A stretch of DNA of 33,624 nt from positions 1-33,624 of IMG/VR virus record IMGVR_UViG_2531839474_000013; one strand, written 5' to 3'. The DNA is from a virus (Duplodnaviria > Heunggongvirae > Uroviricota > Caudoviricetes). Made by a program: the position numbers and the translations under genes. Shown here in pieces: positions 834 through 29,265 of this stretch (the first letter of the stretch is position 1; each line of letters begins with the position of its first letter). The notes beneath the pieces are model-generated. The model had not been told where the DNA came from. It saw only the letters and a list, made by a program, of their open reading frames with translations, and made no database searches.

Positions 834-3800
834 TGCATAATCCTCCGTCCCGACGTGATGACTGCATAATTGACACAACCCTGCTGTCGATCAGTTCCAC
901 CAGCCCCCTGGCTGACTGCGTATCTATCTCGCCATTGCTCCCTTTATTCTGAATACTGATGTGATACACGGGAGAATAAACAAATCCCCCGCCACCATTC
1001 ACATTGCCAATGGCTCTGACTCCAAGAGAGCCGTCCGCTGCCCGGGTCAGTGGCATGATAGCTTCAGGCCCTGCCTCGCCCATCAGCCCGGCACCTTTCG
1101 CAAAAGCAAAATACGTCGGGGTATCCACAATGGTGTTACTGTAAGCACTCAGATTTGCCGATGTATAAACACCACCTTTTGCGTTTGCCACTGCACCGGA
1201 AAGCCAGTCGCCGACCGTACCAAGCCATCCTCCGGCACCGGACATGCTTTTGGAAAGTGACTTCAGCCCGTTAACGATGGCAGCGTTCATCAGAATTTTT
1301 GAAACTTCCTGGAGAATTGAACTCCCCCAGTTTCTCCAGTCCACAACATTTCCGGCCAGTGCATCGGAAATATTTGATACCAGCCCGTCCATAGTGGAAA
1401 CGACAGCATCTGCCGCCTGCGAAGCATAATCAGTGGCACTGTCTGCCCAGTTCGTCAGCCCCTCCTGGAGTCCGGCATTCCAGTTACTGCGTAAAGCATC
1501 GGCCTTTGCATAATAATCCTGCTGATCGCTGAGACGCTCTTCCAGATACTTTTCATTCAGCGATTTTTCCTGTTTCCACAGGGCTTCTTCAATTTCTCCG
1601 GCCTGATACTGTCTCAGCAGCTCGTTATTTTTCTGCTCAAACGCCTGCCGGATACTCCACATTTCCTGGAGTCGTTCACGCATCCGTGAGCCTTCACCAT
1701 ATCCCAGCAACTGCGCATCGTTAGACGCCCGGGCACTGGCATTACTGTCCGCCAGGCTGCTTTCATAAGCAGCAAGCTGCTCACGAATCTTTTTCTGGTC
1801 AATGAGTGCCGCATTCTGTAAAAGCGTTTTTTTCTGCGCTTCTGACAGAGTTGATAATTCGCCCTGACTGACCTGATATTTCACCCTGGCCAGTTCAGTA
1901 TTCTGCCCTGCCAGTGCTATTTGTTCTTTTTGCTGTTTAATCAGCCGTTTATAAATATCTTCTGTTTTTTCCGCTTCGGTCTTTTTATGTGTTTTAGGTT
2001 TATTTGCCTGGTTATTTCGCCAGGCATCCAGTGAGTTATTGATATAATTCTGTCTGGCTGCCTGATACGCCTCTCCCACAAAGCCGAGATCATCCGCAGC
2101 ATAACCCAGGCGGGCACGCTCACGGGCTTCCCCCTTCAGGCGGGACAGAGCCAGTTCACGCTCGCTATTATTCAGCGCAGTCTGCTGTTTATCATCCAGA
2201 ATGGCCTGTGGCAGCCGTAATGGTACATTCACCAGCCCCTGACGCTGCTGAAGTAACTCATTACCAAGCCCGAGAAGACGATTAAACTCGGTATGCTGCC
2301 CATTCATGATCAACAGGGACTGATACGCTTTGTTTTGTTCTGCCGCCTGTTGACGGATTAACGCCACCCGTCGCTCCTCCAGCCCGGCAAGCACATCCTG
2401 AATGGATTGCGCTTTGCCCTGCATTTGAGTGAGGCGAGACTGTTCAACTGCCAGTTGATTTGTTGCTTCTGCAAGCCCTTCTGTGACAGTTTTTACCGAC
2501 GTCATGTGGTTAATCATAAAACCGTTATCGGTTGTCCAGCCCGGGTTTGCCAGCACATACTGATAGCCAGCAATTTTTTCCTGTAAGGATTTGATCTTAC
2601 TTTTCTGCTCGTCAATTAACCTGTTTTGCTCATCAAGTGCCTGCCGCGTCTTTTCCTCATTATCTGACGTTTCAGGAAGCGACATTGCCGACGTTTTCTG
2701 GCGAATTTCGTCGATTGTTGCGGCATACTGGCGTGCAGATTCTCTGGCCTGCTCCTGATTCTGATACATCGTGTACCAGGCCGTAGCCCCCAGCATGACA
2801 AGCCCCGGCACACCACCAACCAGCCCCAGTGCCCCACTTAACAGACGACTCCCCACTGACGTGACATTATTCAGCGTTGTCTGTGCTGCTGTTCTGGCCG
2901 CAATATTACGGGTAAGTGACGCCTGGGCAGCAGCCAGTTTCGATTCTGCGGCTGCCTGCCTTTCGGTACCGCGAGCAGCAGCAACCGCCTGTTGCGCACG
3001 ATAAACCGCCGCACGCGCCCTGGCTGTTGCTATCTGCGTCCCCCGGAGCTGCGCTTCCGCAAGAGCCACTTCGTTTCTGGCTGCAGTAATTAATCCGGCA
3101 GTTGCAGATCCAGCAGAAGACGCCATATTGCCAAAATATCGGGCTACCCCGACGGCAACCAGAGCACCGGCAGCGGTTGCCACGGTGTCAATATTGCCTG
3201 CAAGACCATTCAGCACCCCGGAGAGCGTCTTCGTCACTCCGCTTGCCTCGTTCGCACCACCAACCCAGGCCATAAAGGCGTTTTCAACTTTGGTTGCAGA
3301 GGATGAAACCGTATCAGGCATTGCTGCATATTCATCACGCAACGCCCCAAGCTGACTAATCAGTGCAGGAACAACCTTATCGGCGGTCAGTTTTCCGTTA
3401 TCCGCCATGGCCTTCAGATCCTTACGGGCAACGCCCATTCCCGCGGCCAGCGCACGAATAACACGATCACCGCTCTCATTCACGGCGTTAAATTCTTCAC
3501 CGCGCAGCACTCCCTGCGCCAGTGCCTGGCTGAACTGCGTGATCACCGAACTGGCTTCTGCTGTACTGGCACCGGATAATTTCAGGCCCGTGGAGATCGC
3601 CTCGGTGACTTTCAGTACCTCCTCAGAACTGTAGCCATACTCCCGCATGGAAGCTGCAGAGCGGGCAAAAAGGCTGGCGTTATCAGAAAACGCCGTTCCC
3701 GTTCTCTGGCTGATTGCCATTAATTCACGTTGTGATACCTGAAAATCATCACTGGACTGTGAAGCCTGCTTCAGACGGGCATTTACTGAATTCCACTCAT

Positions 3801-4065
3801 CGGCGAGAGAAATAAGATGACCGGTAGCAAAAGCTCCGGCAAATGCCCCCGCCATATTCAGTGCCGAAGATTTAGCTGTATTTATCTGATCCGTCACTTC
3901 TGCCAGTGCACGCCGCATTTCACGGGATGCAGCAGCGGACTGCCGGCCTCCGTTCTGCATGGTACGGTAGTAATCCTGCCCCATACGCGAAGCCCGGGCG
4001 ATCTCTGACTGGAATGACCGGGAGTTTGCCGAGATTTTAATAATCAGTTCACGTAATGTCGCCAT
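826..4065 (-). CDS. tail tape measure protein
   Basis: 1079-aa largely helical, Ala/Gln-rich protein lying between the G/T chaperone genes and gpM/gpL, the canonical tape-measure position. Confidence 0.9.
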   Translation of the reverse strand: MATLRELIIKISANSRSFQSEIARASRMGQDYYRTMQNGGRQSAAASREMRRALAEVTDQINTAKSSALNMAGAFAGAFATGHLISLADEWNSVNARLKQASQSSDDFQVSQRELMAISQRTGTAFSDNASLFARSAASMREYGYSSEEVLKVTEAISTGLKLSGASTAEASSVITQFSQALAQGVLRGEEFNAVNESGDRVIRALAAGMGVARKDLKAMADNGKLTADKVVPALISQLGALRDEYAAMPDTVSSSATKVENAFMAWVGGANEASGVTKTLSGVLNGLAGNIDTVATAAGALVAVGVARYFGNMASSAGSATAGLITAARNEVALAEAQLRGTQIATARARAAVYRAQQAVAAARGTERQAAAESKLAAAQASLTRNIAARTAAQTTLNNVTSVGSRLLSGALGLVGGVPGLVMLGATAWYTMYQNQEQARESARQYAATIDEIRQKTSAMSLPETSDNEEKTRQALDEQNRLIDEQKSKIKSLQEKIAGYQYVLANPGWTTDNGFMINHMTSVKTVTEGLAEATNQLAVEQSRLTQMQGKAQSIQDVLAGLEERRVALIRQQAAEQNKAYQSLLIMNGQHTEFNRLLGLGNELLQQRQGLVNVPLRLPQAILDDKQQTALNNSERELALSRLKGEARERARLGYAADDLGFVGEAYQAARQNYINNSLDAWRNNQANKPKTHKKTEAEKTEDIYKRLIKQQKEQIALAGQNTELARVKYQVSQGELSTLSEAQKKTLLQNAALIDQKKIREQLAAYESSLADSNASARASNDAQLLGYGEGSRMRERLQEMWSIRQAFEQKNNELLRQYQAGEIEEALWKQEKSLNEKYLEERLSDQQDYYAKADALRSNWNAGLQEGLTNWADSATDYASQAADAVVSTMDGLVSNISDALAGNVVDWRNWGSSILQEVSKILMNAAIVNGLKSLSKSMSGAGGWLGTVGDWLSGAVANAKGGVYTSANLSAYSNTIVDTPTYFAFAKGAGLMGEAGPEAIMPLTRAADGSLGVRAIGNVNGGGGFVYSPVYHISIQNKGSNGEIDTQSARGLVELIDSRVVSIMQSSRRDGGLCSA

Positions 4066-13473: not shown

Positions 13474-13941
13474 CTACTTAATGCACTGAGTGCGGATATA
13501 CTCCTGTGCCCCTTCCAGTTGCATCTGCATCGTCATCAGCCGCTCTCTGAGGGTGAAATAATCCCGTTCAGCGGTGTCTGCCAGTCGGGGGCTGGTTGCA
13601 TTATCCACGCTGGTGGGTCCGGTGGCTTCACGCACGGCTGCGGAGCAACTGGCATTGACCCGCAGGCGCTTACGACCAGCGGCAACATCAGCGCGCAGAG
13701 TTTCATTTTCAGCTTTCGCATTAGCTAATTCTCTCGAGTACTTTGCATCGAGCGCAGCAACATCACGCTGACGCTGCTGCATGTCAGCGATGGTGGCAAT
13801 CACCTGCTTCAGCTCACCGACTTTTTTATCACGCTGTTCTTTGTAGGCGATGGCGTGATCACGGTAATGATTAACCGCCCATGACAGGCAGACGATGATG
13901 CAGATAACCAGAGCGGAGATAATCGCGGTTACTCTGCTCAT
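13474..13941 (-). CDS. Rz: i-spanin Rz
   Basis: [28 protein letters not shown]... is near-identical to lambda Rz. Confidence 0.9.
13536..13721 (-). CDS. Rz1: o-spanin Rz1 lipoprotein, embedded in the +1 frame of Rz
   Basis: [33 protein letters not shown]: signal peptide, lipobox and proline-rich segment, lambda Rz1-like. Confidence 0.85.
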
Positions 13942-14414
13942 ACCTCAATCTCTCTGACCGTTCCGCCTGCTTCTTTGAATTTTGCAATCAGGCTGCCAAC
14001 TTTATGCTCGAACTGACCATAACCAGCGCCCGGCAGTGAAGCCCAGATATTGCTGCAACGGTCGATAGCCTGACGAATATCACCGCGATCAATCATTGGT
14101 AAAGCGCCACGCTCTTTAATCTGCTGCAGTGCAACAGCGTCCTGGCTTTTCGGAGAGAAGTCTTTCAGGCCAAGCTGCTTGCGGTAGGCATCCCACCAAC
14201 GGGAAAGAAGCTGGTAACGTCCAGCTGCGGTTGATTTAAGTTGCGGGTTTAGCGTGACAAGTTTGCGAGGATGATCGGAGTAATCCGTGAATAGCTCACC
14301 ACCTACAATAACGTCGTAGCCGTGATTGCGGGTTGGCTGTCGCCCGTTATCCGTTCCTTCTGACCACGCCAACATATCGAGGAAAGCTTTACGCTGGGAA
14401 TTTAGTACCTGCAT
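13938..14414 (-). CDS. R: endolysin, lambda R-type lytic transglycosylase
   Basis: 158 aa; [22 protein letters not shown]...[18 protein letters not shown] is near-identical to lambda R. Confidence 0.95.
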
Positions 14415-14417
14415 AAA

Positions 14418-14753
14418 TTACTCCTTAGAGCCACCAAACTTGTTACCGATTACTCGCATTGCAGCCCCACGAATAGCATCGACACCGATCAGCCCCACGC
14501 CGCCACCAATAGCAACAGAAAGTGATTTAGGCCATCCGACATACTCAAGAGCGGATGCAAAGGTCAGCGTCAGAGCGCCACAGAGCAAAATCTCGAGCGT
14601 TTTTCGCTTCCAGCCACCACCACCGCCAAAATAGGCGATGCGCAAACCAGCCATAACGATCGACATAATCACTGCACCCAGCGGTGTGTCTCCACGCCAC
14701 CAGCTCTGAAACAACTCCAGCCAGTCCGGCCAGGTATTTGGGTTATGAGGCAT
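14418..14753 (-). CDS. holin (lambda S-family-like, three predicted TM segments)
   Basis: Start placed at internal ATG 14753 (GAGGTGAGAG upstream), giving 111 aa with hydrophobic segments and a charged C-terminus, directly upstream of the endolysin. Confidence 0.8.
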   Translation of the reverse strand: MPHNPNTWPDWLELFQSWWRGDTPLGAVIMSIVMAGLRIAYFGGGGGWKRKTLEILLCGALTLTFASALEYVGWPKSLSVAIGGGVGLIGVDAIRGAAMRVIGNKFGGSKE

Positions 14754-14829
14754 TTCGTCATCTCTCACCTCGCGATATTTGCGGGTGCTGTGTTGGAAAT
14801 AAAAAGGCCACGCAACGTGGCCACCAGAA

Positions 14830-15882
14830 TTATTTCCCCACCAGTTCACTTACCTCTTTCGCCGTCTGATTAAACCGCTCTGACTCAAGTTCAACACCTA
14901 ACGCCCGACGCCCCAGCGCCATTGCTGCTTTTATTGTGGAACCGGATCCCATAAAGAAATCAGCAACCAGATCACCAGGTCGACTACTGGCATTGATTAT
15001 TTGCCGGAGCATATCCGCCGGTTTCTCGCACGGATGTTTACCCGGGTAGAACTGAACGGGCTTATGCGTCCAGACATCGGTATAAGGCACGGAGACTGAT
15101 ACGGAGAAATAGCGCCGGAGAGATTTAAACTCATCCAGCAATTCAGAATATTTGCGATTCAGTGAATCATAAGATGCCACCAGCTGGTGGTGTGGTTGTT
15201 CCAGTTGTTGTTCCTGAAACTTCTCTGCCGCTATACGGGAAAACAGTGCCTGTAACTTCCGATAGTCAGCCTCATTCGGCAACTGCCACTGACTGGCACC
15301 AAACCAGTGGGAAACCATATTTTTCTTACCTGTGGCTTCGGCAATTTGTTTTGCCGTTATACCCAGTTCGGCACGAGCATCCCTGAAATACGATATCAGC
15401 GGTGCCATTATGTGCTGTTTGAGTTCCCTTTCTTTTGCCGCATAGCCGTCACTTTTGGGCTGATATGGTCCCTGATAATGTTCAGCAAACAGAATGCGTT
15501 CTGTTGCCGGGAAATACGCCCGCAGGCTTTCCTTGTTACACCCGTTCCAGCGCCCGGACGGTTTCGCCCAGATAATGTGATTCAGCACATTAAAGCGTTC
15601 ACGCATCATGATTTCGGTGTCAGATGCCAGGCGATGACCACAGAACAGGTAGAGACTTCCGGCAGGTTTCAGTACCCGCCAGAATTGCGCCAGACACTGA
15701 TCCAGCCATTTCAGGTAATCATCGTCGCCCTTCCACTGGTTATCCCAGCCCTCGGGCTTCACTTTAAAGTATGGCGGGTCTGTGACTATCAGATCGACAG
15801 AGTTTTCCGGTAAGGTCTGGATAAATTCCAGGCAATCAGCGTTGATTAACTCACAACTGGATATTTTTACAGTATTAACCAT
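14830..15882 (-). CDS. DNA N6-adenine/N4-cytosine methyltransferase, beta class, orphan
   Basis: N-terminal DPPY motif (VTDPPYF) and C-terminal FxGxG motif (FFMGSGST); no adjacent restriction endonuclease gene. Confidence 0.85.
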   Translation of the reverse strand: MVNTVKISSCELINADCLEFIQTLPENSVDLIVTDPPYFKVKPEGWDNQWKGDDDYLKWLDQCLAQFWRVLKPAGSLYLFCGHRLASDTEIMMRERFNVLNHIIWAKPSGRWNGCNKESLRAYFPATERILFAEHYQGPYQPKSDGYAAKERELKQHIMAPLISYFRDARAELGITAKQIAEATGKKNMVSHWFGASQWQLPNEADYRKLQALFSRIAAEKFQEQQLEQPHHQLVASYDSLNRKYSELLDEFKSLRRYFSVSVSVPYTDVWTHKPVQFYPGKHPCEKPADMLRQIINASSRPGDLVADFFMGSGSTIKAAMALGRRALGVELESERFNQTAKEVSELVGK

Positions 15883-16021
15883 AGATCAATAAGCACTTCT
15901 CTGATAGGCTCATACCGCTTTTGCGCAAAGCAGATGGGCCAGAGGTTTGCTTGTGACCCCAACGCATGAGCAGATGGCTGATAGGTGCCGCTAACACCCA
16001 CCAGCCGCCCATTACCACAAA

Positions 16022-16047
16022 TTAAAAAGCCTTCACTGCGGAAGGCG
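16022..16047 (-). terminator. terminator-like hairpin overlapping the stop of the small late gene
   Basis: Minus strand GCCTTCCGCAGTGAAGGC followed by TTTTTAATTT. Confidence 0.4.
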
Positions 16048-16230
16048 TCTGTAACAACCGAACTGATAATCTGCCAGACCCGCCATAACAAGCTGGGTCA
16101 GTATTAACTGGCAGCGTTCGCGTGAAAGGTAAGTATTCTGCGCAATTTCCCCGACGGTCGCCGGTTCGGTGACGCTTAATTCATTAAACACCACTCTGGC
16201 GGTTTCGGTCATATCCTGCTGTTTTAGCAT
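16033..16230 (-). CDS. hypothetical small protein (65 aa) between the Q-like gene and the methyltransferase
   Basis: Start placed at ATG 16230 (AAGGGA upstream); the track's longer ORF begins inside the terminator T-run. Confidence 0.4.
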   Translation of the reverse strand: MLKQQDMTETARVVFNELSVTEPATVGEIAQNTYLSRERCQLILTQLVMAGLADYQFGCYRRLPQ

Positions 16231-16353
16231 GTCTTTTTCCCTTTTCCGGTTAACGTGACATACCAATAACTCTTGTCGAAAAAGCCAGCAAGCTGAAAGA
16301 CCGGTATTCGCAACCATCAGCGCGTTTAACGTCCTGTACCGTTTTTCAGGCAT

Positions 16354-16381
16354 AAAAAAACCCGCAAAAAGCGGGCTCTTT
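16354..16381 (-). terminator. intrinsic terminator downstream of the Q-like gene (tR'-like position)
   Basis: Minus strand GCCCGCTTTTTGCGGGT followed by TTTTTTT, about 75 nt downstream of the Q-like stop. Confidence 0.6.
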
Positions 16382-16454
16382 CAAATGTCCATGTCTGCTA
16401 TTCGCCTCGCGGTACAGCTTTGCGAAGCGTACCGGAATTGAAGCAGTTTTTACG

Positions 16455-17021
16455 TCAAAAAGCAATAACTTTTTTCTCTATACCAAAAGCCATAACCATT
16501 GGTTTGTACAAAATAAATTCTGCCACCTTTAGCCAATGCTCAATGCGTCTTTCACAGGTTCTTAAACTCCATTCCGGATGTGCATCATTCAGCAGTTCAG
16601 CCATTTTGCGCTTAGTCATCCCCCGCTCCACATAACGCTGACTCAGAACATTGAGCAGCCCGGGATAACCTGCCAGTACTTCACCAATAACCCTGTCGAT
16701 TATTAACGCCTCTGAATCGGTACAATGTGCCAGCCAGCTTTTTTGATTGCCGTTGATCATATCCCGCAAAAAAGCCTCAAGTTCAGGTTTGTCCAGACCC
16801 GCTTTTTTCATCCTCCGGAGCGCCTCGTTAATTGCCGTTTTTGTCAGCTTTTTAGAGGTCAGTAATTGGTTGAACATATTTCCCGTCTTACCGTCGCCAA
16901 TATACGACCAACGCCCCCACATACGCAGTTTCCCCTGGATCCAGACACTTTCCAGCGTTTTCAGGCGTAAATGCTCACCGCTTTTGCCTGTAATTTCCGG
17001 GTATATCATATTTATGCTCAC
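16455..17021 (-). CDS. putative late-gene regulator (Q-like antiterminator, assigned by position only)
   Basis: 188 aa; lies between rusA and the late terminator/lysis genes, where lambdoid phages carry Q. I could not confirm the family by sequence. Confidence 0.45.
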   Translation of the reverse strand: MSINMIYPEITGKSGEHLRLKTLESVWIQGKLRMWGRWSYIGDGKTGNMFNQLLTSKKLTKTAINEALRRMKKAGLDKPELEAFLRDMINGNQKSWLAHCTDSEALIIDRVIGEVLAGYPGLLNVLSQRYVERGMTKRKMAELLNDAHPEWSLRTCERRIEHWLKVAEFILYKPMVMAFGIEKKVIAF

Positions 17022-17383
17022 TCACTTTCAATTTTGTAAATCTTCACGCCCAGCCGCCCACCAGAAACGAGCTGACCGCGCACAATATTGATTTCATCAA
17101 ACTGCTCGTCGTCTATAAGTAGTCCGGCATGCGTAAGCGCATCCAGTGGTGCCTTCAGGATATTGTCCAGGTCGCGGCGGCGCTTATCCGGTGGCTCTGC
17201 AATAATCTTTATCGCCAGCCTTCCGGACAGGTTTAATTTCAGCCGCTGCTGGCGAACAATAAGTGCCACATCCCGGCGATAACGCTCACCGGCTTTTGAC
17301 ACAAAATATGTGCTGCCACGACGTCGCCAGTAGGTGTTCACCGTCGGCGGGTAAGGCAAAACAAATTCTATGCGTTCAGTCAT
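17018..17383 (-). CDS. rusA: Holliday junction resolvase RusA
   Basis: 121 aa; PPTVNTYWRRRGSTYFVSKAG...RRRDLDN...GGRLGVKIYKI matches the RusA family. Confidence 0.9.
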   Translation of the reverse strand: MTERIEFVLPYPPTVNTYWRRRGSTYFVSKAGERYRRDVALIVRQQRLKLNLSGRLAIKIIAEPPDKRRRDLDNILKAPLDALTHAGLLIDDEQFDEINIVRGQLVSGGRLGVKIYKIESE

Positions 17384-18439
17384 TCATGCTTTCCACTTCA
17401 GGACACCCGAATTTCTCGCGTGCATTAAAAAACGAATCAGCAACAACAGCTGGCTGCCGTGTTTTTCTTCAAAATCTTTTACCCCGGCGTGCAGTTCGTT
17501 ATGACATTTACGGCACAGCGGAATAACAAACAAATCATCAGCCTTTGTTCCCATCCCTCCCAGTCCATGACCAATGATGTGATGCGGATCATCTGCCTGA
17601 TTACCGCACGTCATGCATTTCTGCGTTTTTACCCAGCGCGTGTATACAGGCATCTCTTCCCGTTGTGGTTTCTGGCGCTGGAGATACTGAGCCGGTGACT
17701 CCGGATCAACGGCAATGCTGACCACCGTCTTTTCCTGTGGCGGGTTTTGCTGGTGGGCGTGAGGCAGCAGCGCAAGATTTTTTGTGCGCTGCTTCAGTAT
17801 GCTGGTGGCGGTCTGCTCTCCCGGTACGATGTCGCTTTCGCGGTACACCGAGCGGATTTTTTCCGCACGCAATCCCAGAGAACGACGTAATACTGCCTCC
17901 GGCAATACGTCCGCTACCTGATTGCAGACCGCCCACCAGGATAATTCAGCCAGCGATAACTCCCGCTCCTGTGTGCCATTCATTGCGTGACGGATGACGT
18001 CAATCATCCATGCTGCCAGGTTTTGTTGAGCCAGATGTTCCAGTGAGTCGGAGGTCTGGTCGCGCAGCTGGTTGTCGCAGTGCCAGCACAACACCATCGC
18101 GCCAGCACCGTAACGATGTATGACGGTTTCGCTGTGGTGATAGTCGCCATGAGGCCACTGGCAGGATTTGACATGACGCAACAGCCAGTCAGAAAGTGCA
18201 CCAGCGCCGCCAGCAGCACGAATCACCCGTTCGTTACTGAAAAACGGCAGCAATGTTTTGTCTTCCGCCAGCGGCTGGCGAATGGCAGGAACGACTCCGG
18301 ACGGCAGACCGCGCATGCTTTTCGGTTCCGGCTCCACCAGCACTCGAGGGTTATGAAATACCTGCATGGATTCACGACCAGGCTTAAGGACCACCAGCCC
18401 GAGTTCCGGTACCGGAACAGGTCGAAGTAATACCCGCAC
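17384..18439 (-). CDS. DUF968-family phage protein (YdfU-like) with C-terminal HNH-like Cys/His motif
   Basis: 351 aa; C-terminal CMTCGN...HHIIGHGLGG...CRKCHNELH; GTG start with GGAGGT upstream; nin-region position next to rusA. Confidence 0.7.
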   Translation of the reverse strand: MRVLLRPVPVPELGLVVLKPGRESMQVFHNPRVLVEPEPKSMRGLPSGVVPAIRQPLAEDKTLLPFFSNERVIRAAGGAGALSDWLLRHVKSCQWPHGDYHHSETVIHRYGAGAMVLCWHCDNQLRDQTSDSLEHLAQQNLAAWMIDVIRHAMNGTQERELSLAELSWWAVCNQVADVLPEAVLRRSLGLRAEKIRSVYRESDIVPGEQTATSILKQRTKNLALLPHAHQQNPPQEKTVVSIAVDPESPAQYLQRQKPQREEMPVYTRWVKTQKCMTCGNQADDPHHIIGHGLGGMGTKADDLFVIPLCRKCHNELHAGVKDFEEKHGSQLLLLIRFLMHARNSGVLKWKA

Positions 18440-19114: not shown

Positions 19115-19156
19115 ATGACTTTTTCTTTCTGTCATTTGTATACTCTAAAAATAGAG
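19115..19156 (+). promoter_or_regulatory. candidate promoter and palindromic operator of the toxin-antitoxin operon
   Basis: -35-like ATGACT, 18-nt spacer, -10 TATACT (19139..19144), then the palindrome CTCTAAAAATAGAG (19143..19156). Confidence 0.3.
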
Positions 19157-19258
19157 TGTTTTTTGAGCCGCCATTCCTTAGCAAGTCCTCTGTATGGATA
19201 TTGCCTGCCCTATTTAATTGTGTCACACTATGTATTACACAACGGTATGGAACCAAAC

Positions 19259-19630
19259 ATGCGCATTTTCAAAAATGCCTGGTTTGAACGCTTCGCACGA
19301 AAAAATCGGATTTCCGATAAAGCTCTGCGAGAAGTCGTGGAACTAGCTGATAAGGGACTCATATCCGCAGATTTGGGTAGTGGTGTCATTAAGCAGCGAT
19401 TAGCCCGAAGAGGTGGCGGTAAATCAGGCGGTTATAGGACAATAATTTTTTACCGCGTCGCAGAAAAGGCTTTTTTCATCTATGCGTACGCAAAGAATGA
19501 GAGAGAAAATATTACAGCCATCGAGGAAAACGCATTTCGAAAAGCTGCGCATCACGTTCTCAATCTTACTGATGAACAACTGGCGCAATTGATCCTGCAA
19601 GGTCAGTTTACGGAGGTACCCAATGAGTAA
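19259..19630 (+). CDS. type II toxin, RelE/ParE superfamily (HigB-2-like)
   Basis: GSGVIKQRLARRGGGKSGGYRTIIFY...YAKNERENI resembles V. cholerae HigB-2. Start placed at ATG 19259; the track's ORF from 19115 has a long, implausible leader. Toxin gene precedes the antitoxin. Confidence 0.75.
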   Translation: MRIFKNAWFERFARKNRISDKALREVVELADKGLISADLGSGVIKQRLARRGGGKSGGYRTIIFYRVAEKAFFIYAYAKNERENITAIEENAFRKAAHHVLNLTDEQLAQLILQGQFTEVPNE

Positions 19631-22246: not shown

Positions 22247-23134
22247 TCAGGCTGCCAGATCATCGTTTCTGATGGAAGCATAATAAGCTTTTTCTGCTTC
22301 TGCCGGAGGGATATGACCCAGCCTTCCCAGCAATCGTCGATTGTTATACCAGTCCACCCACGTGAGTGTGGCCAGTTCCACTTCTGCACGGTTTTTCCAG
22401 CTCTTACGGTGTATTACCTCCGCTTTGTAAAGACCATTGATGCTCTCCGCCATCGCGTTGTCATACGAGTCACCTGTACTCCCTGTTGATGCCAGCAGTT
22501 TTGCTTCTTTTAGTCGCTCCGTATAGGCCAGTGATACATACTGAGAACCTTTATCACTGTGATGGACTGTGCCGGACGGCCGACGGGCCCACAACGCCTG
22601 CTCCAGTGCATCCAGCACGAATGTCGTTTCCATAGACGATGAGACTCGCCACCCCACGATACATCCGGCAAACACATCAATGATGAACGCCACATAGACG
22701 AAGCCCTGCCATGTGCTGACGTAAGTAAAATCAGCCACCCACAGCTGGTCAGGACGTTCTGCCACGAACTGACGGTTTACGCGGTCGCCTGCGGAAACGG
22801 CTTTCCGGCTGACGGTAGTACGGACCTTTTTACCCCGGAGAACACCGGCAAGTCCCATAACCGCCATGAGGCGCGCCACTGTACATCTGGCCACCCTGAT
22901 ACCTTCGCGTAACAACTGGCGCCAGACTTTACGCACACCGTACACCTGATGATTTTCATCGTATACGCGCTGTATCTCTCTCTTCAGCCAGTCATCGCGC
23001 TGAGCACGGGCACTGCGTTTATCAGGATGATGTCGCTGTTGCTGACAGTGGTAATACGTTGACGGGGCAATATGCAGTTCACTGCATACCGGTCCGACCC
23101 CGTACTGCTCACGCAGCTTATCCAGCAGCGGCAT
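22247..23134 (-). CDS. IS3-family transposase OrfB (DDE catalytic domain)
   Basis: 295 aa with integrase-core-like motifs (ADFTYV, HSDKGSQY, DNAMAES); in the -1 frame relative to orfA. Confidence 0.9.
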   Translation of the reverse strand: MPLLDKLREQYGVGPVCSELHIAPSTYYHCQQQRHHPDKRSARAQRDDWLKREIQRVYDENHQVYGVRKVWRQLLREGIRVARCTVARLMAVMGLAGVLRGKKVRTTVSRKAVSAGDRVNRQFVAERPDQLWVADFTYVSTWQGFVYVAFIIDVFAGCIVGWRVSSSMETTFVLDALEQALWARRPSGTVHHSDKGSQYVSLAYTERLKEAKLLASTGSTGDSYDNAMAESINGLYKAEVIHRKSWKNRAEVELATLTWVDWYNNRRLLGRLGHIPPAEAEKAYYASIRNDDLAA

Positions 23135-23460
23135 TATTTTTTCCAGAGGCGGTCGAACTCCGCCTTCGCAAAATAAGCGGAAGCCTGGCGAAGGATATCG
23201 TTACTGCGGCGCAGTTCACGATTTTCACGTTCCAGCTCTTTCAGACGCTGACGTTCAGCGGTGGTGAGTCCACCATCACCACTCCCGGTATCCCGCTCAT
23301 GCTGACGAACCCACACACGCAGAGTCTCTGGTGTACAGCCAATCTTTGGGGCAATGGAACAAATTGCCGCCCATTGTGAGTCATATTCGCCCTGACTTTC
23401 CAGAACCATACGAACTGCCCGTTGACGGACCTCGGGGGAAAAACGTGTATTTTTAGTCAT
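23134..23460 (-). CDS. IS3-family transposase OrfA (HTH domain)
   Basis: 108 aa with HTH and leucine-zipper-like C-terminus; ends TGG AAA AAA TAA, where orfB continues in the -1 frame. Confidence 0.9.
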
Positions 23461-28704: not shown

Positions 28705-29265
28705 TTCATCCTCCTGAGGGTTAGTAATTAAGGAGTTCTCCACGGGTGAGGTGGAGTGCGTGCGCCGGACACGGGTGAGCATCCGGCACTGACAGTTTAC
28801 TGAAAGGATATCTCCCTGAAAAGTCAGGGCATAACGCGAAAGCGCACGGCGAAGTTGTTGGTTCATAGATAGCCTGTCGTTAAATTTTCGTCGACCGTGC
28901 GCTTCCGGTTGTGGCACTCCGCGAAATGGCGCGGCGGTAAGTATGGCGGGGTTATTCCTTCCCCGTTGAGGACACCGGGTTGTCAGGTTGACCATACGCT
29001 TAAGTGACAACCCCGCTGCAACGCCCTCTGTTATCAATTTTCTGGTGACGTTTGGCGGTATCAGTTTTACTCCGTGACTGCTCTGCCGCCCTTTTTAAAG
29101 TGAATTTTGTGATGCGGTGAATGCGGCTAAGCGCACGAGGAACAGTTAAAACCAAAAACAGTGTTATGGGTGGATTCTCTGTATCCGGCGTTAATTGTTA
29201 ACTGGTTAACGTCACCTGGAGGCACCAGGCACTGCATCACAAAATTCATTGTTGAGGACGCGATA

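Follow-up and report, generated by a model that had tools for sequence, protein, structure and literature searches.

Which elements lie between the late antiterminator gene and the lysis genes of this prophage, and how the gene of a methyltransferase placed there could be held in check, are the questions raised by a segment (positions 15883 to 17021) of a viral DNA of 33,624 nt (IMG/VR record IMGVR_UViG_2531839474_000013), the whole of which is called the window below. The segment comprises a Q-like gene, an intrinsic terminator (T1), the gene of a 65-aa protein, a terminator-like hairpin (T2) and a spacer; it ends one base before the ATG of the methyltransferase gene, which lies just outside. 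All of these features are on the minus strand, and those listed in a preliminary description of the sequence were all found there, at or very near the positions given in it. Along this strand the order is the Q-like gene, a promoter-like site, a -10-like element, a leader of about 76 nt, T1, the 65-aa gene, T2, the structured spacer, the methyltransferase gene, a third terminator (T3) and the holin gene. T3 and the conserved structured RNA between the 65-aa gene and the methylase gene are additions to the features described before.

Taken together, the locus is quite probably the late-operon entry of an E. coli-type lambdoid prophage, consisting of a Q cassette and a gated three-part cargo cassette. 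The arrangement is common and has been annotated previously, in SfV (orf47/orf48), phiP27, Stx2a phages, mEp460 and cdtI and in E. coli genomes; positions 15883-17400 are present over at least 80% of their length in 828 of 5426 complete E. coli genomes. In the form first described, the locus has a textbook lambdoid layout and, taken alone, matters little. What appears to be undescribed is the small partner protein and the folded RNA leader that accompany the methylase gene.

The Q-like gene (16455..17021, minus strand) was assigned to a DUF1133 subfamily of late antiterminators related to Q21, based on Pfam, PHROG and PDB matches. The preliminary description had named it from the sequence and suggested a profile search; in this search the protein matched DUF1133 with an E value of 1e-104 and PF06530 with 33 bits, above the cut-off of 26, as well as PHROG 753 ('anti-termination protein Q-like'). 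Among PDB chains, only those of Q21 matched significantly (E 1e-4 to 3e-4), with an alignment that spans the N-terminal W..G.L..WG.W.Y.G motif and the C-terminal half of the protein. The AlphaFold2 model, built on a shallow alignment, has a mean pLDDT of 52, too low for any use of the predicted fold. Two starts are available, GTG at 17021 (188 aa) and ATG at 17009 (184 aa), and the ATG is likely to be the true one since the database clusters of the protein have 184 aa. In six phages, from three genera (E. coli, Klebsiella, Providencia), a DUF1133-type homologue immediately precedes cargo and lysis genes, and an HHpred analysis of Stx phages has likewise interpreted DUF1133 as Q (PMC8136144).

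A candidate late promoter PR' (16437..16465, minus strand) overlaps the Q stop codon (16457..16455). It is composed of a -35 element TTGCTT (16465..16460), a 17-nt spacer and an extended -10 element TGcTTCAAT (16445..16437), whose hexamer TTCAAT is without the consensus A at position 2. The -35/-10 pair and its position are conserved in an alignment of seven DUF1133-type Q loci from five genera; in one further case (locus L170) the upstream sequence differs, yet TTGCAA stands exactly 17 nt before TTCAAT. The hexamer TACGCT (16426..16431, minus strand), 5 nt downstream of the -10 element and at the predicted transcription start (about 16430), is a candidate sigma-dependent pause element. The T, A, G and T of TAnGnT were invariant in all seven of these divergent loci, and among 77 close relatives only TACGCT, TAAGCT and TATGCT occurred. 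The role of such a -10-like pause element in Q loading has been described (bioRxiv 10.1101/651190). In each of the seven loci a terminator with its own stem sequence follows about 50-75 nt downstream. GCTT..ATT-type repeats in these loci coincide with the -35 and -10 hexamers, and a Q-binding element next to the pause element was not recognised in the seven aligned sequences.

The late leader transcript predicted from this start (16354..16430, minus strand, about 76 nt) would consist of a 5' hairpin (16403..16429) and T1, with a fold of -30.9 kcal/mol (z = -4.3). It showed a weak full-length resemblance to the Rfam family isrK (19.8 bits, E 0.066, cut-off 50); neither the six other DUF1133-Q loci nor the 17 cassette loci reproduced it, and it was treated as chance. 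T1 itself (16354..16381, minus strand) is a tR'-type intrinsic terminator, GAGCCCGC-UUUUU-GCGGG followed by U7, and its predicted fold is strong (-20.4 kcal/mol, z = -5.2; none of 200 shuffled sequences folded as well). A simple consensus scan for terminators missed it; pairing of the U-run with the A-run upstream, so that no T tail stays free, is the probable reason. A hairpin with a U-run, but with a different stem, occupies the equivalent place in 24 of 28 related loci, a conservation that, judged from the sequences, is far above chance; a terminator followed every DUF1133-type Q gene examined, and one is annotated at this site in SfV. The earlier proposal that a strong terminator behind Q closes a short late leader thus agrees with the layout of promoter, TAnGnT element and terminator shared by the seven DUF1133-Q loci.

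The other two terminators are weaker and less widely distributed. The preliminary description had given the 65-aa gene a terminator-like hairpin of its own, and this hairpin is real: T2 (16029..16046, minus strand; GCCUUC-CGCAGU-GAAGGC then U5) overlaps the stop codon of the gene, and its stem covaries (GCCTTC/GAAGGC, GCCTCC/GGGGGC, CTCCGC/GCGGAG). It is weak, however (-9.4 kcal/mol, z = -1.9; 9 of 200 shuffles folded as well), a perfect stem with a T-run of this type was present in only 10 of 28 related loci, and the U-run is limited to some lineages. T3 (14806..14822, minus strand; GGCCACG-UUG-CGUGGCC then U5), located between the methylase and holin genes, is moderate (-12.5 kcal/mol, z = -3.0) and was found in 9 of the 28 loci; SfV carries an annotated terminator at the equivalent site. 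In phiP27 and Stx2a phages, tRNAs and stx are located at the position of T3. It had been supposed that the cassette sits in the place of the stx and tRNA genes of Shiga-toxin phages, but in these phages the two coexist, stx and the tRNAs being inserted after the methylase gene. An own sigma-70 promoter between T1 and the cargo genes, which would mark them as a moron, was not found by a promoter scan, while the terminators T2 and T3 are present.

By analogy with lambda, 21 and 82, PR' would always fire, and in the lysogen T1 would end its transcripts. Once the prophage is induced, Q would be loaded on RNA polymerase that has paused at the -10-like element; the Q-loaded polymerase would then pass T1, T2 and T3 and transcribe the lysis and structural genes. 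Late antitermination control of the methylase, as suggested earlier, is the natural expectation for a gene located between Q/tR' and the holin gene.

The methylase gene (14830..15882, minus strand) encodes an orphan beta-class N6-adenine methyltransferase of 350 aa that belongs to the M.EcoGII family (PF01555, E 4e-43). The beta-class assignment made in the preliminary description was upheld by the motif order, with DPPY at residues 34-37 near the N-terminus and FFMGSGST (FxGxG) at residues 309-316 near the C-terminus, and so was the orphan status, the gene being flanked by the winged-helix gene and the holin gene with no adjoining nuclease gene. The holin gene (14418..14753, minus strand; lambda-S type, 111 aa from ATG 14753, PF05106 E 6e-27) is the start of the lysis cassette and is followed by the endolysin gene (13938..14414, minus strand); in SfV, the S gene of 336 nt is located at the equivalent place. 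The methylase is identical to M.EcoGII at 291 of 349 residues (83%, 2 gap positions) over the full length including the target-recognition region, as compared with an M.EcoGII sequence that was extracted from a PDF by machine reading and may contain minor errors.

It has been reported that M.EcoGII is sequence-independent, deleterious if constitutively expressed and unexpressed in the lysogen, and that its adenine methylation, up to 99%, blocks many restriction enzymes (PMC5778455). Homologues of M.EcoGI/II likewise gave no methylation signature in O111 STEC lysogens (PMC6602927). Judged by this homology, the enzyme of the window most likely methylates adenines in any sequence context, and a specific methylated motif, which the preliminary description expected to be found, is unlikely because the closest characterised enzyme is sequence-independent. 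An identity of 83% does not prove the same lack of specificity, and since M.EcoGII was characterised without its upstream partner, the natural behaviour may differ. The proposed anti-restriction role is in line with these data: an M.EcoGII-type enzyme that methylates any adenine would protect progeny DNA broadly from restriction, and it would be kept off in the lysogen because such activity harms the host. No data on virion-DNA methylation of SfV-type phages, and nothing specific on SfV orf47/orf48 or on late expression of M.EcoGII-type enzymes, were found within the literature searched.

Another target is conceivable, as RNA and DNA:RNA hybrids are in vitro substrates of M.EcoGII too (PMC5778455), and another prophage methylase has 16S rRNA as its target and alters the induction frequency (PMC10810198). 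The main substrate could then be host or phage RNA, or the host chromosome, with a reprogramming of the cell during lytic growth or an effect on spontaneous induction. We regard this as improbable, since the initial rate of M.EcoGII on RNA is roughly a hundredth of that on DNA (supplementary Table S3, PMC11551740), the position behind tR' would confine expression to the late phase in a cell about to lyse, and the block of restriction enzymes is a direct benefit to progeny DNA. Protection of progeny DNA is retained below as the most likely role of the enzyme.

Upstream of the methylase, the 65-aa gene (16033..16230, minus strand) encodes an acidic protein of PHROG 331, to which no function is assigned. 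Comparison with related loci showed that the 65-aa reading frame is the conserved one. A longer form of 106 aa starting at ATG 16353 was rejected, as this ATG is missing in SfV and phiP27 and indels of 1-2 nt break the frame in SfV, phiP27 and Stx2_EH1910; the long form has the higher PHROG 331 score only because this is how many members were annotated. The AlphaFold2 model of the 65-aa protein (pLDDT 91.8) has an H1-H2-H3-wing topology, and its Foldseek matches were the N-terminal winged helices of OhrR, MarR and IclR (TM 0.77-0.81). The family is narrow, with 61 representatives among 1.8 billion proteins, and it was found essentially only just upstream of methylase genes of the M.EcoGII-type family. 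The search of NCBIfam gave no match, and the PDB sequence search gave nothing significant.

The suggestion in the preliminary description that this protein is a regulator was thus sustained as far as the winged-helix fold is concerned; the protein family is acidic and strictly tied to the methylase gene. As a transcription factor, it would time methylase expression as C proteins do, by binding to a motif upstream of its own gene or to a near-palindrome in the spacer. The DNA-binding domains of MarR, IclR and OhrR are its closest structural relatives, and homologues are named 'TrmB family transcriptional regulator' by NCBI, but the TrmB profile, which was the result of the profile search proposed for this protein, scored 17.1 bits and stayed under the Pfam cut-off of 25.6. 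The nine homologues compared have a pI of 4.5-6.5 and only 4-6 Lys+Arg, both measured on the whole protein; by this measure a basic nucleic-acid-binding character was not found for the family, and neither in the wing nor in the exposed part of the recognition helix is a basic character conserved. The acidity of the protein argues against simple nucleic-acid binding.

Two candidate binding sites would favour a role as transcription factor. The motif CTTGCTG-N11-(C)AGAGTTAY-N3-GTRTG (16259..16292, minus strand) in the 5' leader of the 65-aa gene is non-coding, and its core bases do not vary among 24 loci that range from Escherichia to Plesiomonas; RNAalifold predicts only a short helix for it. 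As a sigma-70 promoter the motif was rejected, because a G stands where the -10 element needs its final T and the promoter scan found none, so that a detectable sigma-70 promoter for the protein to regulate is missing there. Part of the spacer forms the near-perfect palindrome GCTTTAGCGCTAAAGC in several genera, but covariation that includes G-U pairs, and helix strands about 70 nt apart, indicate an RNA rather than a DNA operator. A role as transcription factor is therefore rather unlikely.

A role as a subunit or chaperone-like partner of the methylase, which restricts, targets or gates the enzyme so that the holoenzyme would lack the indiscriminate activity observed in vitro, is no less likely, although it too can be proposed only tentatively. 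The protein is acidic, small and single-domained, and throughout Enterobacterales the two genes are strictly paired, also where the proteins are only 42% identical. M.EcoGII was cloned and assayed by itself (PMC5778455), and a precedent exists in phage PA8, whose winged-HTH protein PNB-2 forms a 1:1 complex with an MT-A70 methylase that is redirected to 16S rRNA (PMC10810198). On the other side, PNB-2 is not homologous to the 65-aa protein (BLASTP E 0.14) and its methylase is of another family, the 65-aa and methylase genes are about 150 nt apart without overlap, and M.EcoGII alone is fully active, which means that catalysis needs no partner.

The spacer between the two genes encodes a conserved structured leader RNA of about 140-145 nt (15880..16020, minus strand), which is composed of a long 5' hairpin and a 3' domain closed by an AGGUCA/UGAUCU helix directly before the AUG of the methylase gene; this gene is without a Shine-Dalgarno sequence. 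The structure is supported by covariation. In a MAFFT alignment of 25 spacer sequences that was not fitted to the structure, 44 base pairs were evaluated, with slid partners as control: 91.7% of the positions were paired versus 30-44% with slid partners, 15 pairs changed on both sides versus 3-6, and none of 500 shuffles reached the observed value. A covariance model gave one match per cassette and no significant score elsewhere, and the fitted alignment of its 50 matches was 95% paired. The minimum-energy fold of the spacer in the window reproduces the structure (-60.8 kcal/mol, z = -3.7). A search of Rfam 15 with the window and 17 related loci returned nothing at the gathering thresholds and only noise up to E = 10, and the RNA would be a new candidate family for Rfam. 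A 47-aa open reading frame in the spacer (15875..16018) was rejected as a gene, since it varies from 7 to 47 codons between lineages and has frameshifting indels in SfV.

What the RNA does is suggested by its position and by the lineage that lacks it. The end of the structure falls always exactly at the methylase AUG, and in the RNA-less lineage a 73-nt spacer carries a 13-pair hairpin followed by a T-run, a replacement that fits the idea that the spacer restrains methylase expression. Caution is needed, as translation could be raised by the leader instead of lowered, or the leader could have a part in stability or processing. It may also be considered that the RNA is not a negative gate but a processing or stability element, a platform for structure-dependent initiation, or a released small RNA: other prophage late-leader RNAs have functions in trans (StxS, PMC7547250; IsrK, PMC4825925), some unusual initiation route must exist for a gene that has no Shine-Dalgarno sequence, and the RNA was retained in one locus (L033) where no methylase was detected. 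The constant end point at the AUG, the terminator hairpin that takes the place of the RNA in the other lineage, and the lack of a terminator at the 3' end of the RNA itself all speak against such roles, which we hold to be doubtful. A restraining leader is the reading that is carried forward.

The three parts also travel together. In 24 of 26 genome loci the methylase gene was located about 150 nt after the winged-helix gene, the exceptions being a contig end and a degraded locus. Divergent copies with 42-54% identity showed the same gene pairing behind PF03589-type and PF06530-type Q genes. When viral contigs were retrieved by the RNA pattern alone, 49 were found; the methylase start was exactly at the ATG of the RNA motif in 48 of the 48 with room for this gene, and the winged-helix gene was upstream of the RNA in 48 of the 48 with room for it. 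The cassette of 65-aa protein, RNA of about 140 nt and methylase, as judged by these comparisons, is mobile and combines with at least three Q families.

In the reading that we prefer, restraint of the enzyme in the lysogen is probably layered, by T1, by T2 in some lineages and by the leader that would pair the bases before the AUG of a gene without a Shine-Dalgarno sequence. The winged-helix protein most likely acts with the enzyme or on the leader RNA, as a gate or targeting partner. The silence of M.EcoGII-type genes in lysogens would be explained by their place, behind a Q-controlled terminator, often further terminators, and a leader that pairs next to the AUG. A more tentative model goes further: M.EcoGII-type enzymes would be part of a fixed three-part module whose small partner and start-masking RNA gate or redirect the enzyme, its activity being limited, for example, to late infection or to phage DNA; we put it forward as a possibility worth considering rather than as the expected outcome. 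If this is true, the sequence-independent activity of the isolated enzyme is only half the story, and the leader represents a new class of cis-regulatory RNA specific to the M.EcoGII-type methylase family. The cassette would be a clean model of how a phage restrains a self-toxic anti-restriction enzyme. In chromatin research, M.EcoGII has found use as an enzyme that methylates independently of sequence, for example as a Sir3 fusion (PMC8830885), and for its family both the conserved partner and the conserved leader would count as new biology.

Small HTH-type genes directly upstream of an enzyme that is harmful if mistimed are known from restriction-modification systems, whose C proteins resemble the cassette of the window also in having a conserved non-coding motif upstream. 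The window differs from these systems in having no nuclease gene, an acidic winged helix rather than an Xre-type HTH, and no regulated promoter that could be found.

Among the known phages, SfV is the closest. Its late region has 90.6% DNA identity to the window from inside T1 to the endolysin gene, and the set and order of its genes are identical (Q, terminator, orf47, orf48 methylase, terminator, S holin). L23/L24 of phiP27 and the corresponding genes of Stx2a phages represent the same cassette, and the layout is also found in mEp460 and cdtI. SfV, phiP27 and Stx2_EH1910 differ in their Q genes and promoter-leader segments, the homology beginning within the terminator (in SfV within the T1 hairpin), and the Stx phages differ in the tRNAs and stx added after the methylase gene. 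Neither the link between small protein and methylase nor the spacer RNA is annotated in the SfV, phiP27 and Stx2a records.

The Q cassette resembles that of phage 21 (Yin et al. 2019, bioRxiv 10.1101/651190) in the order of Q, promoter, -10-like element, terminator and late genes, and the PF06530 and Q21 matches of the Q-like protein agree with this. The similarity to Q21 is remote (E about 1e-4), however, and the protein has its own Pfam family, DUF1133; the -10-like element of the window lies at the start site, and no Q-binding repeat was recognised. StxS (PMC7547250) and IsrK of Gifsy-1 (PMC4825925) are short transcripts directly downstream of Q that end at a Q-overridden terminator, and IsrK has the same place and size class as the predicted leader of the window (the Rfam model has 77 nt). 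Neither has a significant sequence or structure match to this leader, and StxS accompanies a Q type of 144 aa, whereas that of the window is of the DUF1133 type. Compared with the 258-nt leader of the Stx phage (PMC7547250), the predicted leader of the window is very short. With this leader and the candidate pause element at the start site, the DUF1133 branch would offer a compact system for studies of Q.

For the enzyme, the closest comparison is with M.EcoGII and M.EcoGI of E. coli O104:H4 C227-11 (Murray et al. 2018, PMC5778455), which are prophage-borne and silent in lysogens. M.EcoGII shares the beta-class motif order and has about the same length as the methylase of the window, in addition to the full-length identity given above; the methylase was cloned alone in that work, and the Q/tR' position, the 65-aa gene and the structured leader are not described there.

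The pair of M.EcoPA8orf6770P and PNB-2 from the Stx phage PA8 (Gong et al. 2023, PMC10810198) differs in several respects. The methylase is of the MT-A70 type with DPPW, the partner has 143 aa and no significant similarity to the 65-aa protein, the genes gp5-gp7 lie near record position 2200-4000 and are not shown between Q and lysis genes, and a structured spacer RNA was not reported. The likeness lies in a small winged-helix gene immediately upstream of a phage methylase gene, and for the PA8 pair it is the 1:1 complex of the two proteins that sets the substrate choice (PMC10810198).

All genes of the locus lie on the minus strand of the window, and their order is as follows: a DUF968/HNH gene (18439..17384), rusA (17383..17018; Pfam RusA), the Q-like gene (starting at 17021 or 17009 and ending at 16455; Pfam DUF1133 and PF06530), a non-coding stretch with the terminator-like hairpin T1 (16381..16354) at its end, a 65-aa ORF (16230..16033), a second hairpin, T2, over the stop codon of this ORF (16046..16029), a spacer of about 150 nt, a 350-aa methyltransferase (15882..14830; Pfam PF01555), a third hairpin, T3 (14822..14806), a lambda-S-type holin (14753..14418; Pfam PF05106) and an endolysin (14414..13938). 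Lower coordinates hold terminase, portal and head genes, whose roles were assigned from ORF size and order only. The Q-like gene, hairpins, 65-aa gene and methyltransferase named in the preliminary description were all present, and its interpretation was largely right, with three corrections: how the cassette relates to stx, that no methylation motif is to be expected, and what the small protein would do. Some features were noted elsewhere in the window. A 171-aa ORF (19115..19630, plus strand) on the opposite strand separates the DUF968 gene from those at higher coordinates. A full-length DicF small RNA (29040..29091, plus strand; Rfam RF00039, 76.7 bits) is by coordinate well upstream of the Q gene, on the early-gene side. 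An ALIL pseudoknot (23063..23179, minus strand; RF01497, 120.9 bits) extends over the beginning of a 295-aa ORF (22247..23134); since ALIL is the frameshift signal of IS3-family insertion sequences, an IS element probably lies inside the prophage early region.

The locus as such is ordinary, very common and already in databases. When window positions 15883-17400 were compared with 5426 complete E. coli genomes, 3649 gave a partial match and 828 a match with at least 80% coverage, at identities of up to 98.7%, and the matches are annotated as 'DUF1133 family protein', 'RusA', 'hypothetical' or 'TrmB family' protein. From the interior of T1 to the endolysin the window and Shigella phage SfV share 90.6% identity, and SfV is annotated in the same order: Q, terminator, orf47, orf48 methylase, terminator, S. 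The 65-aa and methylase gene pair was also found in phiP27, mEp460, cdtI, Ayreon and many Stx2a phages. The 65-aa gene and the methylase, which form the cassette together with the spacer RNA, had been placed in the interval where Shiga-toxin phages carry stx and tRNA genes. A tRNA search of the window returned none, and phiP27 and Stx2_EH1910 have both cassette and toxin, with the tRNA genes and stx between methylase and holin, at the T3 position. Therefore, the cassette is a neighbour of stx and not a substitute for it. Enterobacterial cassettes were also seen in records titled Bacillus sp. MAG (L016; 65-aa protein 98% identical) and Chryseobacterium sp. (L026; 79% identical), and these are more likely to reflect mis-binning or contamination than genuine transfer. 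What the analysis adds is a putative model, at sequence level, for DUF1133-type Q cassettes, and evidence that an acidic winged-helix protein and a structured leader RNA accompany M.EcoGII-type methylases as a fixed set of three; no description of either companion was found in the database records and literature examined.

The profile search suggested earlier for the Q-like protein bore out its name. The protein scored above the Pfam cut-off for PF06530 (Q21 family) and matched PHROG 'anti-termination protein Q-like' families, and Q21 was its sole significant match in the whole PDB (E 3e-4 alone, 1.3e-4 as profile); its predicted structure was of too low quality for use. DUF1133 was also read as Q by HHpred in a survey of Stx phages (PMC8136144). 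E. coli, Klebsiella and Providencia phages carry homologues 35-82% identical directly in front of cargo and lysis genes, and this cargo includes tRNAs and a pertussis-like toxin. When the DNA after the stop codon was aligned for seven DUF1133-type Q loci, a common arrangement was found: a -35 hexamer (TTGCTT, TTGATT, TTGACT or TTGAAT), a 17-nt spacer with TG-n at its end, a -10 hexamer (TTCAAT, TTGAAT or TATCTT), a hexamer TAnGnT five bases past the -10 with unvarying T, A, G and T, and, about 50-75 nt further on, a hairpin with a U-run that is each locus's own. The invariant hexamer reads TACGCT, TAAGCT or TATGCT in 77 close relatives among viral contigs, and in one contig with differing upstream sequence TTGCAA still stands exactly 17 nt before TTCAAT. 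A Q-binding element was not recognised in the DNA after Q.

It has been reported that Q cassettes consist of a promoter, a -10-like sigma-dependent pause element and a terminator (bioRxiv 10.1101/651190), and the DUF1133-type loci share this layout. Because of this match, transcription would start near 16430, with a candidate pause element at 16431..16426 (minus strand) and a predicted leader of about 76 nt ending near 16354, against a far longer leader of 258 nt in Stx phages (PMC7547250); promoter activity, pausing and Q loading may be expected at DUF1133-type loci on the same grounds. Among 74 close relatives with enough sequence, the same cassette follows in 50 and other cargo in 24, so the cargo and the set of Q, promoter and leader are two separate modules that meet at the terminator. 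The predicted leader (16354..16430, minus strand) also gave a full-length, sub-threshold match to Gifsy-1 IsrK (19.8 bits, E 0.066), which was absent from related loci. IsrK is made directly 3' of a Q-like gene (PMC4825925), and StxS and IsrK are leaders that act in trans.

The three hairpins differ in standing. T1, claimed to be a strong terminator, folds at -20.4 kcal/mol (z = -5.2; equalled by 0/200 shuffles), T3 at -12.5 kcal/mol (z = -3.0) and T2 at only -9.4 kcal/mol (z = -1.9; 9/200 shuffles). A terminator pattern scan listed T2 and T3 and missed T1, which likely escaped through an upstream A-run able to pair with the U-run. Comparison across loci is a stronger test than single-sequence folding. 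Of 28 related loci, 24 have a hairpin of perfect stem plus T-run 83-128 nt 5' of the 65-aa gene, with stem sequences of many kinds, and T1 is thus a firmly conserved terminator. Such hairpins occupy the T2 position in 10/28 and the T3 position in 9/28. T2, described as the 65-aa gene's own terminator-like hairpin, is therefore present and conserved but weak, and terminator-like only in some lineages, the window's included; T3 is optional. In L026 (3037..3341) three tRNA genes precede the 65-aa gene and the terminator-like hairpin 5' of that gene follows them, so the first terminator after Q is not in every case the hairpin beside the cassette. The 5' leader of the 65-aa gene carries a motif, CTTGCTG-N11-(C)AGAGTTAY-N3-GTRTG (16259..16292, minus strand), located 40-75 nt 5' of the gene in 24/24 aligned loci with core bases invariant across Enterobacterales. 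It was not convincing as a sigma-70 promoter, and only a short RNA helix was predicted for it.

The methylase, with DPPY first and FxGxG last in its motif order, is 83% identical (291/349) to M.EcoGII over the full length, central recognition region included. M.EcoGII methylates adenines whatever their sequence context, in vitro up to 99% of them, which blocks many restriction enzymes; it is harmful under constitutive expression and not expressed in its own lysogen, and the authors of that work speculated that prophage induction turns it on (PMC5778455). O111 STEC lysogens likewise carry M.EcoGII-type homologues without a methylation signature (PMC6602927). A place behind a Q-controlled terminator would provide a concrete basis for this silence. 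Since the closest enzyme acts in any context, a search for the methylated motif of the window enzyme would most likely return 'no motif'.

The spacer before the methylase is 137-154 nt in all loci with a long spacer, and much of its sequence is kept even where the proteins diverged far. In the two-domain structure predicted by RNAalifold, a long hairpin makes up the 5' domain, and an AGGUCA/UGAUCU helix right before the methylase AUG closes the 3' domain. On an unfitted MAFFT alignment of 25 sequences the 44-pair structure was 91.7% paired, against 30-44% when pairing columns were slid by 1-3 columns, and 15 pairs had changed on both sides, against 3-6; 0/500 shuffles reached the observed values. 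Judged by its G-U pairs, the RNA lies on the gene strand. A motif-only pattern search found 49 viral contigs, and in every one with room the motif ATG was the methylase first codon with the winged-helix gene upstream. A covariance model built from 18 sequences gave one match per cassette in 48 loci (E 1e-16 to 1e-34; window 15877..16020, 124.8 bits), with 95% of cells pairing in the fitted alignment; the only other matches were two at noise level (E 0.07 and 0.96), and none fell in Q loci without the cassette. The window spacer alone folds to the same shape (-60.8 kcal/mol, z = -3.7), and no Rfam family matched the spacer RNA in the window or 17 related loci. The lone lineage without the RNA has a 73-nt spacer with a 13-pair hairpin and then a T-run. 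Two decaying cassettes were observed: L033, with a truncated winged-helix gene, no methylase detected 3' and the RNA recognisable at 95 bits (3670..3805), and L034, with a weaker RNA (3706..3847, 78 bits) and a methylase alignment short of an ATG.

No Shine-Dalgarno sequence was found before the methylase gene, and TGATCYATG at its start is invariant. The simplest reading is that the spacer would restrain expression of a dangerous enzyme by masking its initiation region. The GATC (Dam site) 2 nt before the ATG (15885..15888, minus strand) is invariant in all 45 distinct spacers and part of the closing helix. The first hairpin has an AUG at its foot, from which a frame (15875..16018, minus strand) runs for 47 codons in the window and ends 4 nt inside the methylase gene. 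A conserved protein was rejected, as the frame varies from 7 to 47 codons between lineages (7-18 outside the window's); it could possibly matter for translational coupling in the E. coli type only.

The 65-aa protein in its short form is a real gene. Genome loci were compared from Escherichia, Salmonella, Klebsiella, Kluyvera, Citrobacter, Buttiauxella, Mixta, Erwinia, Proteus, Providencia and Plesiomonas; of these 26, 24 have a methylase that starts about 150 nt past the stop of the 65-aa gene, and the other two are a contig end and a degraded copy. Relatives 42-54% identical show the same pairing behind lambda-type (PF03589) and Q21-type (PF06530) Q genes. Its AlphaFold2 model is a confident winged helix (pLDDT 91.8) resembling OhrR, MarR and IclR DNA-binding domains (TM about 0.8). 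Profile searches, also suggested earlier, gave a TrmB match below cut-off, no NCBIfam match and a PHROG without assigned function; with no more than 61 representatives in a set of 1.8 billion clustered proteins, it is almost an orphan by sequence. The suggestion of a regulator agrees with the fold, but all tested homologues are acidic (pI 4.5-6.5), which sits badly with a plain DNA-binding regulator. The protein would be an obvious candidate to lift the spacer block. A winged-HTH protein of Stx phage PA8, whose gene lies immediately 5' of an MT-A70 methylase gene, forms a 1:1 complex with that methylase and redirects it to 16S rRNA (PMC10810198). Neither protein of that pair is homologous to its counterpart in the window, but the precedent shows that such a partner is able to alter what a phage methylase does.
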